Source: Escherichia coli (GTDB lineage Bacteria; Pseudomonadota; Gammaproteobacteria; Enterobacterales; Enterobacteriaceae). From it: DNA of 64,000 bases. Positions 16,144-52,493 of the stretch are shown here, one piece after another. Location of the stretch: assembly GCA_005400705.1 (NCBI GenBank), contig GCA_005400705.1_4079.1; one strand, 5' to 3'. The notes beneath the pieces were generated by a model. It was not told where the DNA came from. It saw nothing but the letters and a program-made list of their open reading frames with translations, and searched no databases. Each line of letters begins with the position of its first letter. The stretch's first letter is position 1. The position numbers and the translations under genes were made by a program.

Positions 16144-16626
16144 ATGGCTAATGTAAAATCATTCATCAAAGCACTGGTAGCAAATGAAACTAACGTCGCG
16201 GCAGAGATCCTGGCTGATCTGGATAACGATACCATGAAAGCGGTACGCAATAATTTTAACATCGCTTATAGTACTGCGAAAGAACTACAAGCAAATAAAG
16301 CGGCAGAAATTGAAGCGGCAAAGGCGGCCCGTGAAGCAGAACTACAAGCAACAATTGAAAGTATCCAGGCGGCAGTAGTTGGATTGGATCTGGAAGTAGT
16401 TACAGAGATGGCACAAAAAGCCCTGGCGGTTAAGTATGGGGAAGATAAGCCGGAATCTAAGCCTAAAAAATGGATTCAAAAACGTGTAGCGGTAGTACTG
16501 GACAACGGGGAAGAATATCTGATTCCGGTGCGTGGTAACTGCATTGCGGTAGTACTGGATGCGATTAACTCCAGTGGTATGACTCGCGAGGAATGGATCG
16601 AAGCTCATCGCAAAGTTGAAGCATAA
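16144..16626 (+). CDS. Hypothetical protein with N-terminal coiled-coil
   Basis: Track ORF trimmed to ATG 16144 (MANVKSF); Ala/Glu-rich heptad-like stretch AAEIEAAKAAREAELQATIESIQAA; C-terminal internal repeat VAVVLDN/IAVVLDA. Confidence 0.65.
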   Translation: MANVKSFIKALVANETNVAAEILADLDNDTMKAVRNNFNIAYSTAKELQANKAAEIEAAKAAREAELQATIESIQAAVVGLDLEVVTEMAQKALAVKYGEDKPESKPKKWIQKRVAVVLDNGEEYLIPVRGNCIAVVLDAINSSGMTREEWIEAHRKVEA

Positions 16627-16645
16627 CAATTAAAGTACTGAATCA

Positions 16646-16678
16646 CTAGCCCACCTTAAACGGTGGGCTTTTTTGTGT
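16646..16678 (+). terminator. Rho-independent terminator
   Basis: agcccacc-ttaaac-ggtgggct then ttttttgtgttt. Confidence 0.65.
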
Positions 16679-16824
16679 TTATCGTTTACCAGGCCACCAG
16701 CACCGCCTAGAAACGATTCTAACGCATTAAACTGATTATCTGATGCATTGCCCTAGCTGGTGGCGTTAAGGCTGTAAGAACGCGATTGAGAGCGTTTAAA
16801 GTATTTTGCAAAAAGTAATAAAAA

Positions 16825-19927: not shown

Positions 19928-19990
19928 AGTTTGACAATAGATTATAGTACTGTATAATAAGTTACATCAAGGGGAGAAATGATTCTCCCC
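19928..19990 (+). promoter_or_regulatory. PeSL-type cassette with TTGACA -35
   Basis: tagTTTGACAatagattatAGTACTgTATAAT, hairpin ggggagaa-atga-ttctcccc. Confidence 0.6.
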
Positions 19991-22741: not shown

Positions 22742-22758
22742 AAATAATTGAAAAAGGG

Positions 22759-22787
22759 ATTGACTCCGGTCAGTCCCTTTGCTATTA
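22759..22787 (+). promoter_or_regulatory. Promoter inside the repeated 100 bp element (copy 2)
   Basis: gggaTTGACTccggtcagtccctttgcTATTAT; -35 sits in near-palindrome gggattgac/gtcagtccc. Confidence 0.5.
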
Positions 22788-22874
22788 TATACGCATAGAA
22801 ACAAATCAGCCCACCGGGTGCATAAATGTATCTATTGTTTGCTGGTGGCTAGTACTGAAAACTATTTTTAAAAA

Positions 22875-24298: not shown

Positions 24299-24553
24299 AT
24301 GATGAAGGTACAACTATCTAAAGATAATATCTTGCGGGTACACTATAAAGCACCACAGAGAATCATCACAAAGGCCGTACAGCTTGCTAATGAGTTTATT
24401 AATGGTAGTCTATTACCCAGGAAGTTAAGCAACGGGAAACTACGTGTTATCGATGTAGACACTAACAATAGAATAGTAATTGAGAGTACTGGAAAAATTA
24501 ATCTATATGAACACCAACAATACAATAAAAAAATAAAACTAATATCACGTTGA
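24299..24553 (+). CDS. Hypothetical protein
   Basis: 84 aa ORF. Confidence 0.5.
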   Translation: MMKVQLSKDNILRVHYKAPQRIITKAVQLANEFINGSLLPRKLSNGKLRVIDVDTNNRIVIESTGKINLYEHQQYNKKIKLISR

Positions 24554-24580
24554 CAGTACTCAATTGTTTTAGTATTATGT
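24548..24580 (+). promoter_or_regulatory. Sigma70-like promoter (duplicate module A)
   Basis: TTGACAgtactcaattgttttagTATTAT; near-identical to 24824-24856. Confidence 0.5.
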
Positions 24581-24606
24581 ACACATACCAACACGGGAGA
24601 AACAAA

Positions 24607-24825
24607 ATGAAATTATCTAAAATCGAAAAGAAAACTATTGATGAAGCAGTTAAGCACGGTTATACCTTTCGTAATGATTCACATTTTACCAATTTTCAAC
24701 AAGGGTATCGTACTATTAAAAAACTAATTGACAAAGGTTTATTAGTTGAAGTCAATAACGGCAATGGCATTGAGTATCAACCAACACAGGACGCATTTTA
24801 TTTTAAGAAATATAATATTATCTAA
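24607..24825 (+). CDS. Hypothetical protein
   Basis: Track ORF 24550-24825 trimmed to ATG 24607 (MKLSKIEKK); 72 aa. Confidence 0.6.
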   Translation: MKLSKIEKKTIDEAVKHGYTFRNDSHFTNFQQGYRTIKKLIDKGLLVEVNNGNGIEYQPTQDAFYFKKYNII

Positions 24826-24856
24826 TTGACAGTACTCAAATGTTTTAGTACTATAT
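24824..24856 (+). promoter_or_regulatory. Sigma70-like promoter (duplicate module B)
   Basis: TTGACAgtactcaaatgttttagTACTAT; same leader accaacacggg(g/a)a(a/g)aaacaaaATG as at 24580-24606. Confidence 0.5.
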
Positions 24857-24883
24857 GTACATACCAACACGGGGAAAAACAAA

Positions 24884-25126
24884 ATGATTACTTTAGAAAA
24901 ACGTATCAAAGAAACTACATCGCTGGTGGAACTGTTAACAGTACTGAAATGTAAAACAACACCATTCAGCACGCCGGACTTTATTAATATGGTTGATGTT
25001 AATGGTCGCTATCGCATCACGGTCGAACAAGGAGCGGCGAAAGTATTCAGTACTAAAAACACCAAGGAAGTGATCCACGCCGTTAATGTTAAAAAAGTAG
25101 TTGCCATTGATAGTAAAGTACTGTAA
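24884..25126 (+). CDS. Hypothetical protein
   Basis: 80 aa ORF. Confidence 0.6.
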   Translation: MITLEKRIKETTSLVELLTVLKCKTTPFSTPDFINMVDVNGRYRITVEQGAAKVFSTKNTKEVIHAVNVKKVVAIDSKVL

Positions 25127-25157
25127 TATAGTTTCATTAACTCAAGGAGAACATGCA

Positions 25158-25742
25158 ATGCGTAATTATACTAAATTCATCCGTACACTGTCAGAAATGG
25201 AAACCAACAAAGAGATCCTTTCAGCTTGTCGGTTAGCTGGCCTGGAGATCATCGGTGCTGGTTCTTCCCGTATAGTATTCGCTTTAAATGATCGGTTAGT
25301 GATTAAGGTCGCGAATTGTGATGCGGGTGTAGAACAAAATGAAACTGAATGTAAGGTATGGAATTTTTTAGACTATGACCGCCCTCAGTTGAAACAGTAC
25401 TTTGCAAAGGTGCATATGCATTTATGCGATCCTGATAATATGTTTATCGTTATGGATCGGTTGAGTACTGCAAGCAAAGGCAGTGTGAAGCACGTTAACG
25501 CGTGCAATGAATTAAAGTACAATATTAAACGTAATGCCATTGAACGCCAGCACCGCTTTGCTGATGCACTACAACACGTTGATGATACCTTATCAACACT
25601 AACTATAAGAGATATCAGAAAACAGAATATCGGCCAGGATCGCAACGGCTTGATTAAAGTACTTGATTACGGTTTAACCCGCAATATCTGGAATCAGTAC
25701 TATAAAAAGCGTGATGTAAAAGCCGTAACTATAACACGATAA
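25158..25742 (+). CDS. Putative minimal protein-kinase-like protein
   Basis: Track ORF trimmed to ATG 25158 after SD aaggaga; 194 aa with kinase-like motifs in canonical order: IGAGSSRIVF, VIKV, FIVMDRL, RDIRKQN, VLDYG. Confidence 0.45.
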   Translation: MRNYTKFIRTLSEMETNKEILSACRLAGLEIIGAGSSRIVFALNDRLVIKVANCDAGVEQNETECKVWNFLDYDRPQLKQYFAKVHMHLCDPDNMFIVMDRLSTASKGSVKHVNACNELKYNIKRNAIERQHRFADALQHVDDTLSTLTIRDIRKQNIGQDRNGLIKVLDYGLTRNIWNQYYKKRDVKAVTITR

Positions 25743-25760
25743 AAAAGATTAAAAAAGGGA

Positions 25761-25789
25761 TTGACTCCGGTCAGTCCCTTTGCTATTAT
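25761..25789 (+). promoter_or_regulatory. Promoter inside the repeated 100 bp element (copy 3)
   Basis: gggaTTGACTccggtcagtccctttgcTATTAT. Confidence 0.5.
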
Positions 25790-25872
25790 ATATGCATGAA
25801 AACAATCTAACCCACCGGGTGCATAAATGTATCTATTATATAAGTATTCAGTACTGAAAACTATTTTTAAAA

Positions 25873-25937
25873 AGTACTTGCATACTATCTCAATTCGCGT
25901 ATAATGTTTTATATCGAGAGGGGGAAATGGTTCTCCC
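25873..25937 (+). promoter_or_regulatory. PeSL-type cassette
   Basis: aaagtacTTGCATact, TATAAT 25900-25905, GC-rich hairpin agggggaa-atgg-ttctccct. Confidence 0.6.
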
Positions 25938-25959
25938 TGGTACATTAAGGAATAAAATC

Positions 25960-26918: not shown

Positions 26919-26986
26919 AAGTACTTGCATTGTAGTTAGATTAACGTATAATGTTTTATATCGAGAGGGGGAAATGGTTTCCCCTC
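26919..26986 (+). promoter_or_regulatory. PeSL-type cassette
   Basis: aaagtacTTGCATtgtag, TATAAT 26947-26952, hairpin gagggggaaa-tg-gtttcccctc. Confidence 0.6.
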
Positions 26987-27004
26987 AAGTCCAGGAGATA
27001 CACC

Positions 27005-27893: not shown

Positions 27894-27897
27894 AAAC

Positions 27898-27962
27898 TAT
27901 TTGACAGTACTAACCAGTAATGTATAATGTTTTACATAGAGCGGGGGAATAGTTCTCCCGCC
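27898..27962 (+). promoter_or_regulatory. PeSL-type cassette
   Basis: TTGACAgtactaaccagtaatgTATAAT, hairpin gcggggga-atag-ttctcccgc. Confidence 0.6.
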
Positions 27963-28184: not shown

Positions 28185-28205
28185 CAAAAAAGAATAAAAA
28201 AGGGA

Positions 28206-28234
28206 TTGACTCAGGTCAGTCCCTTTGCTATTAT
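28206..28234 (+). promoter_or_regulatory. Promoter inside the repeated 100 bp element (copy 4)
   Basis: gggaTTGACTcaggtcagtccctttgcTATTAT. Confidence 0.5.
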
Positions 28235-28343
28235 ATACGCATAGACAAAAACTAGCCCACAGGGTGCATAAGTGTATCCAAAATATATAGTTAATAACGG
28301 TGAGTAACTATCTGCTGGTGGAGTGAAAACTATTAATAAAAAA

Positions 28344-51949: not shown

Positions 51950-52493
51950 GGTTTATATGTTAGATAAAAAAATGAACTCTGGAACCCAATATAATCATCT
52001 TAAGTTGGATACATTCGAATCAGCTATCAGTACAGCACAAGATATAATTGATATTATCAAGTTCATTAAAGAAGATAAGTTCAAATGTTTGAAAATACTA
52101 AATCGTTCAATGTACCGTGATAAAAATATTCATGTATCAGTACGTAGACCGAAAGATCAAGAAAGTGGGAGAGATTTCTATAACAACAGTGAGCAGTTCG
52201 AATGTGAATATGATCCAGAATTTAGAGGTGGTTTCATGTGTTACTGTATGAAGGATACCTCACACATTGAGATACGTTCATCGAAAGGTGGCATACGTAC
52301 ATTAGAGTTTATTGATATAGTTTTAAATCAGGAATACTACTTTCAACTATCATTATTGTTTCCTGCATACGATTTAGGAGTTCTATTCATGTATAAGTAC
52401 TTTTATGAGCACTGGAATGAAGACTTCTATCTGGACTTAGAAGATTACCAATTAGTTTGGAAAGAAATGGTAAAACTTCGCAACCCATCTTGA
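51909..52493 (+). CDS. Family C protein
   Basis: 194 aa; core QEYYFQLSLLFP. Confidence 0.6.
   Translation: MVICSSNQKCMNYEVYMLDKKMNSGTQYNHLKLDTFESAISTAQDIIDIIKFIKEDKFKCLKILNRSMYRDKNIHVSVRRPKDQESGRDFYNNSEQFECEYDPEFRGGFMCYCMKDTSHIEIRSSKGGIRTLEFIDIVLNQEYYFQLSLLFPAYDLGVLFMYKYFYEHWNEDFYLDLEDYQLVWKEMVKLRNPS

Follow-up and report, generated by a model that had tools for sequence, protein, structure and literature searches.

The gene at positions 25158-25742 on the + strand of the DNA analysed here, a stretch of 64,000 nucleotides (contig GCA_005400705.1_4079.1 of assembly GCA_005400705.1; hereafter the window), encodes a protein of 194 amino acids (aa) that almost certainly has the fold of the protein kinase superfamily with an intact catalytic set, and that lacks the half of the C-lobe which positions the peptide. 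I am moderately confident that it is an active protein kinase that works early in the infection cycle of a jumbo phage. The evidence comes from profile searches, a structural model, residue conservation in a very large and mostly unnamed family, and the genomic setting of the gene.

Results

The window is DNA of an Asteriusvirus (121Q/PBECO4-type) jumbo coliphage, with 90-93% nucleotide identity to the Asteriusvirus phages 121Q, PBECO4, slurp01 and phAPEC6 over 3 kb. The open reading frame (ORF) runs from an ATG at 25158 to a TAA at 25740-25742 (585 nucleotides including the stop), the minus strand opposite is full of stop codons and its frame is closed, and identical 585-nucleotide coordinates for the coding sequence (CDS) are annotated in the records of ph0011, fEgEco12, Sharanji and vB_Ec-M-J. 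Neither tblastn nor the hidden Markov model (HMM) of the family detected a paralogue of the gene in the window. The original prediction, made from the letters alone, had read five kinase motifs into the translation in canonical order, and all five are indeed present in that order: IGAGSSRIVF (residues 32-41), VIKV (48-51), FIVMDRL (96-102), RDIRKQN (151-157) and VLDYG (168-172).

When the single sequence is compared with Pfam, the best matches are Pkinase (E=0.002, 17.9 bits, with a curated gathering cut-off of 31.7) and PK_Tyr_Ser-Thr (E=0.003), both under their curated cut-offs, and not one of 126 aligned relatives reaches the curated Pfam threshold for any kinase family. In the Protein Data Bank (PDB) the single sequence matches protein kinases exclusively, with an alignment that spans the catalytic loop and the DFG motif. 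Here the segment rDIrkqNIgqDRnGlIKvlDyGl aligns to MKK4, the catalytic loop being placed on HRDIKPSN of MKK4 and the DYG on the DFG of MKK4, MKK7 and PknB-type kinases. A family profile of 14 sequences matches MKK4 with E=1.6e-4 and aligns MKK7 from the glycine-rich loop (G-loop) through the DFG, and for a profile of 36 sequences the top matches are again exclusively protein kinases (MKK4, E=3e-6). The PDB profile matches include MKK4, MKK7 and STK24, and in MKK4 and MKK7 the counterpart of FIVMDRL is the beta5/hinge region. With a profile of 126 sequences the best match is the N-lobe of the Salmonella effector kinase SteC (8JBI, chain 8jbi_D; E=5.6e-5). The kinase hits expected of profile searches were thus obtained, sub-threshold for Pkinase in Pfam and as MKK4, MKK7 and STK24 in the PDB. 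Among phage protein families, the protein matches PHROG 4301 far above chance level (E=7.9e-42; residues 3-188 to profile positions 13-185 of 225), which is annotated as 'unknown function' and belongs to a family without a Pfam model, and PADLOC returned weak matches to its PD-T4-6 models.

The structural model points in the same direction. AlphaFold2 with 126 homologues gives a predicted local distance difference test score (pLDDT) of 94.9 and a predicted template modelling score (pTM) of 0.90, and supersedes a model from 14 sequences (pLDDT 63) in which the N-lobe alone was well modelled and the C-terminal half was poor. The predicted structure has the bilobal features of a kinase, that is, an N-lobe with alphaC, a hinge, alphaD-alphaE, a catalytic loop and beta7-beta8, and each of the five motifs sits on the element where a kinase would have it (G-loop, beta3, beta5/hinge, after alphaE and after beta8). 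In addition to the elements in Table 1, the model contains a short helix at 76-81, alphaD at 109-120, alphaE at 130-145, the catalytic loop at 152-157, beta7 at 158-160 and beta8 at 166-168. Both the model and the fold searches therefore return a kinase-type fold: Foldseek matches include Lpg2603, APH(2''), Rio2, p38, NleH2 and PRPK, and in the viral structure library BFVD the RaK2 orthologue (TM 0.85), PBECO4, two CBB proteins and RP12 match over the full length.

The original prediction described this fold as compressed into a short protein, which needs correction, as it is truncated instead: Hanks subdomains I-VII are present and VIII-XI are absent. The protein ends 24 residues past D170 with a single helix of 8 residues after the DYG, and the model shows no activation segment, APE motif, alphaF with its conserved Asp, alphaG-alphaI or subdomain XI Arg. 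Some complete relatives stop as early as 1-4 residues after the DYG.

In order to see which positions are held in the family, residues were counted in an alignment of 126 sequences (A3), which are 20-45% identical to the query outside the close orthologues and have a median length of 216 aa (range 191-272). R38, K50, E64, G159 and G172 are invariant (126/126), and G35 (120/126), S36 (124/126), S37, Q60 (123/126), N61 (125/126), D152 (123/126) and D170 (125/126) are nearly so. Residue 171 is Y or F in 120 of the 126, and Y182 is found in 102. The conserved columns correspond to the putative ATP-anchoring Lys, alphaC Glu, catalytic Asp and Mg-binding Asp of a kinase. For the catalytic loop, the proposed RDIRKQN motif holds in part: D152 is conserved family-wide, but the Arg preceding it is not (Gly in 71/126), nor is the RK pair as such, and N157 is conserved in the close subfamily only (S52/N40/T17/Q13 over the family). 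The loop has no His, and its +2 position is basic in 99/126, like in true protein kinases. Several features are the family's own: an invariant Arg that replaces the third Gly of the G-loop, giving GxGSSR as a variant of GxGxxG, the alphaC signature QNxxE, an invariant Gly two residues past the Asn position, and a YY pair in the tail.

The family is large. Successive homologue searches yielded 13, then 38 and then 519 proteins, mostly of 190-240 aa and mostly without a Pfam assignment, and an exhaustive search with the HMM gave 2,069 cluster representatives (clusters defined at 50% identity) at E<=1e-3, of which 243 at E<=1e-10. The short length is therefore native to the family. Within Asteriusvirus, orthologues are 92-100% identical with dN/dS values of 0.03-0.18, and in phAPEC6 and UB the protein is 100% identical even though nucleotide identity of the gene is just 97.6% and 97.1%, all differences being synonymous; on these grounds the gene is under purifying selection and not a remnant.

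Outside Asteriusvirus, Rak2-like jumbo phages of Klebsiella, Salmonella and Erwinia carry full-length orthologues at 36-41% identity, and weaker ones occur in Yersinia and Pectobacterium phages. The orthologues in PHROG 4301 (RaK2 H6X4G3, K64-1, Munch, SE_PL, Muenster and Sharanji gp063) are the family of the window protein. Their labels are patchy. Among the Asteriusvirus records, a kinase is named in ph0011, fEgEco12 ('PRP4'), Turkey3 ('PknA') and Turkey5, and the rest read 'hypothetical protein'; the K64-1, Munch, SE_PL and Muenster orthologues are labelled '(putative) protein kinase', and the PBECO4 orthologue is a 'Protein kinase domain-containing protein' in UniProt. The paper on Sharanji mentions WNN14351.1, the orthologue of the window gene, as 'another protein kinase ... 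function is unknown' (PMC11895373). The literature on minimal kinases in bacteriophages and on a RaK2 kinase was searched and returned nothing on the family, and no experimental work was found on any member. A limited scan of bacterial species-representative genomes gave no relative of the close subfamily, which tests a restriction to phages only weakly.

The genomic setting suggests early expression. The neighbouring genes are all small and on the + strand, and the window contains 10 perfect TTGACA-N16-18-TATAAT sites where chance predicts 0.22, and the + strand between 13 and 28 kb has 8 of these sites. In addition, the window gene lies in the direct terminal repeat of about 21 kb: the orthologue in vB_Ec-M-J is inside the annotated repeat (1-21,525), that of fEgEco12 (g044, 16,161-16,745) is inside a repeat of 20,993 bp, and that of Muenster is within the repeat called by PhageTerm. 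The length of the fEgEco12 repeat was confirmed by digestion (PMC13070987). As a consequence each packaged genome has two copies of the gene, and a knockout must remove both; the records of G17, JP4, WPEC3 and BF17, among others, contain two gene copies. Since sigma-70 consensus promoters are enriched around the gene and it sits in the terminal repeat, its transcription by host RNA polymerase early in infection is likely and a reasonable inference from the sequence, and its placing among early genes in the original prediction is plausible; a literature search for Asteriusvirus transcriptomes yielded no expression data for the gene.

The promoter directly upstream likely heads a unit of two genes, as judged from the sequence, and the 80-aa ORF is probably co-transcribed with the kinase gene (Table 1). 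Downstream, the 38-nucleotide element AAAGGGATTGACTCCGGTCAGTCCCTTTGCTATTATAT occurs in three copies (22753-22790, 25754-25791 and 28199-28236, all +) with 0-1 mismatch, where none is expected by chance. Its TATTAT is TG-extended. The absence of a T-run rules out a classical intrinsic terminator, and the element may combine a promoter with a hairpin for transcript end or processing. The copy behind the kinase gene probably lies at a boundary between units, closing this one at its 3' end and providing the promoter of the following one.

Table 1. Features of the kinase-like gene, its flanks and the encoded protein (window positions).
Feature	Position	Strand	Basis and remarks
Predicted sigma-70-type promoter, TTGACA-17-TACTAT	24826..24854	+	Consensus scan, 10/12 matches
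80-aa ORF directly upstream, no family assignment	24884..25126	+	ORF list; no Pfam match
Ribosome-binding site (RBS) AAGGAG	25144..25149	+	8 nucleotides before ATG; read from sequence
Kinase-like CDS, stop included	25158..25742	+	ORF/translation, PHROG 4301, AlphaFold2 model, annotated orthologue CDSs
N-terminal extension, residues 1-28	25158..25241	+	Two helices (4-12, 17-26) before the kinase core in the model; F7, C24, L29 conserved
Glycine-rich loop G33-A-G35-S36-S37-R38	25254..25271	+	Between beta1 (30-35) and beta2 (38-42) in the model
K50, putative ATP-anchoring Lys of beta3 (VAIK-type)	25305..25307	+	Strand 47-52; invariant
E64, putative alphaC Glu in Q60-N61-x-x-E64	25347..25349	+	Helix 55-73; invariant; aligns with the alphaC Glu of STK24
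F96-L102 (FIVMDRL), beta5 and start of hinge	25443..25463	+	Strand 96-100 in the model
Catalytic loop D152-I-R-K-Q-N157 (DxxxxN), then G159	25611..25628	+	Conservation and MKK4 alignment
D170-Y-G172, DFG-equivalent Mg-binding motif	25665..25673	+	Conservation and kinase alignments
C-terminal tail, residues 175-194	25680..25739	+	Short helix 175-182 with conserved Y181-Y182, then variable basic end
38-nucleotide hairpin-promoter element	25754..25791	+	12 nucleotides past the stop; 12-bp hairpin, 5' arm with -35-like TTGACT, then TATTAT

Some further repeats were observed among the small genes around this unit. The perfect sigma-70 sites are mainly on the + strand between 12965 and 28000 (e.g. 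at 19931, 21356, 22997, 23337, 23766, 26374 and 27901), with another at 52490, and several have AGTACTG in common just before the -10 box, a hint of a promoter family specific to the phage. Near-identical modules of promoter and leader at 24550-24610 and 24826-24886 (+) head consecutive small genes and have similar read-through translations (LTVLNCFSIMYTYQHG and LTVLKCFSTICTYQHG), so that each small gene appears to carry its own copy of one promoter and 5' leader. Another intergenic module is repeated at about 25880-25945, 26936-27000 and 27897-27960, recognisable by a shared PFPPLDIKHYT in minus-strand ORF translations; the copy at 25880-25945, the sole one read on the + strand, consists of a TATAAT box followed by the conserved leader GTTTTATATCGAGAGGGGGAAATGG with the RBS of the next gene. 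Also among these small early genes is an ORF of 84 aa (24299-24553, +) with a ParE-like toxin domain (PF24732, E=3e-10), and a ParE-like domain is likewise encoded directly upstream of a 52%-identical kinase homologue at a metagenomic locus (L005, 5745-5996). I considered the 80-aa ORF as a ParE-like partner of the kinase gene and rejected this, as two genes separate the kinase gene's neighbour from the ParE-like gene in the report of positions and the 80-aa ORF resembles neither that gene nor the one upstream of the L005 homologue.

Across 85 loci with related genes, I found no family-wide neighbour or conserved partner gene. In one sub-clade (21/85 loci; 7/46 groups at 60% identity) an RNA-repair module lies downstream, made up of a protein with AAA_33 and tRNA_lig_CPD domains, mostly at 25 nucleotides to 2.6 kb on the same strand (L032, L033-L035, L037-L040, L051, L062, L063 and L081 are among these loci). 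A T4-type RNA ligase is also present in 12 of the 21, and NUDIX genes recur. Modules of this kind counter anticodon nucleases; the window has none.

The more distant relatives occur in various contexts, such as an array of small same-strand genes (L005), DNA methyltransferases with S-adenosylmethionine synthetase (L007) and the vicinity of an ART-PolyVal gene (L009). In two distant relatives (L003, 6001-6684, and L004, 6001-6672; contigs of 189 kb and 346 kb) the kinase-like gene lies among structural genes, a few genes downstream of Gp23, which encodes a T4-type major capsid protein, and not in an early-gene setting as in the window. Tandem duplicate genes are present at several loci (e.g. 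L023, 5525-6148, and L027, 5534-6145). Some relatives have 2-6 profile stretches or are embedded in giant proteins, among them P0140 (693 aa), P0141 (923 aa), P0147 (969 aa), P0234 (2130 aa) and P0244 (3248 aa), and multiple stretches in one polypeptide are possibly tandem copies. In P0097 and P0110 (396 aa) the kinase-like domain is fused to a GNAT acetyltransferase and DUF5661. Neither these fusions, nor the tandem copies, nor a weak YrbL match among the larger relatives gave a clear functional hint.

Discussion

The preferred reading, an active protein kinase of early infection, could work as follows. Host RNA polymerase would transcribe the gene at the onset of infection, and the product, a Hanks-type (eukaryotic-like) protein kinase of which only the half for ATP binding and catalysis is left, would hold Mg-ATP between K50/E64 and D170. 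D152 would serve as the catalytic base, and the gamma-phosphate would be passed to Ser/Thr, possibly Tyr, of host or phage proteins. Since the C-lobe lacks its peptide-positioning half, the active site might be open and poorly selective, as reported for T7 gp0.7 (T7K), or a partner protein or self-association might be needed for full activity, as with OspG and E2~ubiquitin. The likely role is host takeover or counter-defence.

The effector SteC provides the main caution. It shares its N-lobe with the phage family, from the helices before the G-loop and the G-loop itself to K256 and E272, which match K50 and E64, and these two SteC residues have been assigned the roles of beta3 Lys and alphaC Glu (PMC13395416). 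The similarity is limited to the N-lobe, however, and SteC in addition has a large N-terminal regulatory domain. It also retains an activation segment with S379 and an alphaF that are required for activity, whereas the phage protein has no equivalent region, and SteC constructs ending at 375-377, thus 13-15 residues past the DFG-equivalent, are inactive (PMC13395416). These inactive truncations call for caution in taking the phage protein to be active on its own.

Alternatively, the protein could be an ATP-binding or ATPase switch in the manner of Bud32 (KEOPS) or the RIO kinases, regulating a bound partner with little or no phosphotransfer. I consider this unlikely. The region of the catalytic loop and DFG is Hanks-like (D-I-[RK]-x-x-N...I-K-[VL]-x-D-[FY]-G), about 80% of the members have a basic residue at the +2 position, like true protein kinases, OspG and NleH are equally truncated yet phosphorylate proteins, and the 85 loci revealed no conserved partner gene for such a switch to act on.

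A small-molecule kinase resembling aminoglycoside phosphotransferases (APH), with a metabolite, nucleotide, signalling molecule or antibiotic-like compound as substrate, is quite improbable. Although APH(2'') is among the structural matches, the substrate-binding C-terminal helical subdomain of the APH type is missing from the phage protein, and a classic glycine-rich loop is present together with a catalytic-loop/DFG sequence like that of eukaryotic protein kinases. The sequence profiles match protein kinases and not APH or choline kinases; the sequence-profile searches gave no match to APH, choline kinase, RIO or Bud32/PRPK.

The window protein might also be taken for the jumbo-phage version of T7K that has been reported for G17- and Munch-type phages, as each is a short phage kinase encoded where host-type promoters drive transcription, and T7-type 'protein kinase' entries are among the BFVD structural matches (TMq about 0.55). 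I reject this orthology as highly improbable: hhalign of the family profile against T7 gp0.7 gives a probability of 0.5%, the protein has no match to the T7K PHROGs 2828 or 15752, its motif is DYG and not the DPx of T7K, and T7K has its homologue in this phage group in another gene, represented by gp144 of Sharanji (223 aa; BLASTP E=4e-8 to T7K, PHROG 15752 E=4e-97). This gene is located about 46 kb from the Sharanji orthologue of the window gene and maps outside the window, and a phmmer search with T7 gp0.7 found no T7K-like gene among the window ORFs. Since gp144 is the T7K homologue and the window gene is not, phages of this group carry two unrelated small kinases and not redundant copies, although the two may share a very distant ancestor in the kinase superfamily. 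The gp144 gene lies at 66182-66856 of OR545507.1 (L093, 22183-22857, -) and is labelled 'hypothetical protein' in its record; its product, too, is a truncated kinase, ending about 17 residues past the DFG-equivalent (ITDPLS).

Finally, that the protein is a decayed and functionless fragment of a full-length kinase, as could be thought from its stopping where a canonical kinase domain is two-thirds complete and from the 'hypothetical protein' of most records, is effectively refuted by the conservation data, that is, by the length held over 126 diverse relatives and 2,069 clusters, the invariant or nearly invariant catalytic residues, the low dN/dS and the synonymous differences in phAPEC6 and UB, in addition to which the gene has a good RBS and a complete ORF, and is followed by the hairpin/promoter element and another gene, not by a remaining kinase half.

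If an active kinase is the correct reading, it can be extended to a joint one that I regard as conceivable but doubtful. The protein would be the smallest natural protein-kinase unit, without alphaF and everything that follows it and with an Arg in the G-loop, active through self-association or a borrowed host C-lobe or activator. It would belong to the first wave of expression, possibly directed against host defence, from a terminal repeat and beside a T7K-like kinase, with the corollary that the SteC-type N-lobe came from the phage pool.

For the biology of these phages, the result means that Asteriusvirus and Rak2-type jumbo phages encode, in addition to the T7K-like protein, another kinase that is smaller still and not related to it, and that represents a very large phage family (2,069 clusters) that is unnamed in any curated library and keeps its catalytic residues without the alphaF-alphaI scaffold that is usually deemed essential. 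If active, it would show the minimum of the kinase fold that phosphotransfer requires, offer a tractable model of 194 residues and open a new class of candidate enzymes of host takeover or anti-defence. If inactive alone, its activator would be a new interface between host and phage. A more modest gain is that the patchy existing kinase annotation is confirmed and sharpened, and that a Pfam-style family can be built from alignment A3.

Comparison with known systems

The closest parallels in architecture are secreted effectors. Shigella OspG, of about 196 aa and thus similar in size, and E. coli NleH1/NleH2 are truncated at the same point after subdomain VII as the phage protein. OspG and NleH are minimal kinase folds without subdomains VIII-XI that are nevertheless active, OspG requiring E2~ubiquitin (PMC12756638). 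However, no specific closeness in sequence or structure to the phage protein was found: OspG and NleH are absent from the best 60 PDB matches of each of three family profiles (maximum E-value 1), and NleH2 (4lrk) ranks 42nd in Foldseek with E=5e-3. The GxGSSR, QNxxE and YY tail are signatures of the phage family as compared with these effectors. Moreover, OspG and NleH are secreted into eukaryotic cells by type III secretion, and E2~ubiquitin, the activator of OspG, is not present in bacteria.

RIO kinases and Bud32/PRPK are likewise small kinase folds without a classical activation loop and are among the structural matches of the phage protein, but they retain C-lobe helices of the alphaF-alphaI type, and their catalytic loops are without the basic +2 residue.

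As a functional model, T7K is the most instructive, being a phage-encoded kinase of an early region driven by host promoters. It is an early, hyper-promiscuous, self-inactivating anti-defence kinase, and together with JSS1_004 it was recently shown to be a broad counter-defence weapon (PMC13645617). In contrast to the DYG of the window protein, T7K has DPV/DPx at the DFG position (PMC13645617), and T7 gp0.7 carries a C-terminal DNA-binding shut-off domain. Taken together, the protein is an uncurated new case of the minimal Hanks-type and early phage kinases and not a new kind, and its value lies in its truncation, the size of its family and its relevance to counter-defence.

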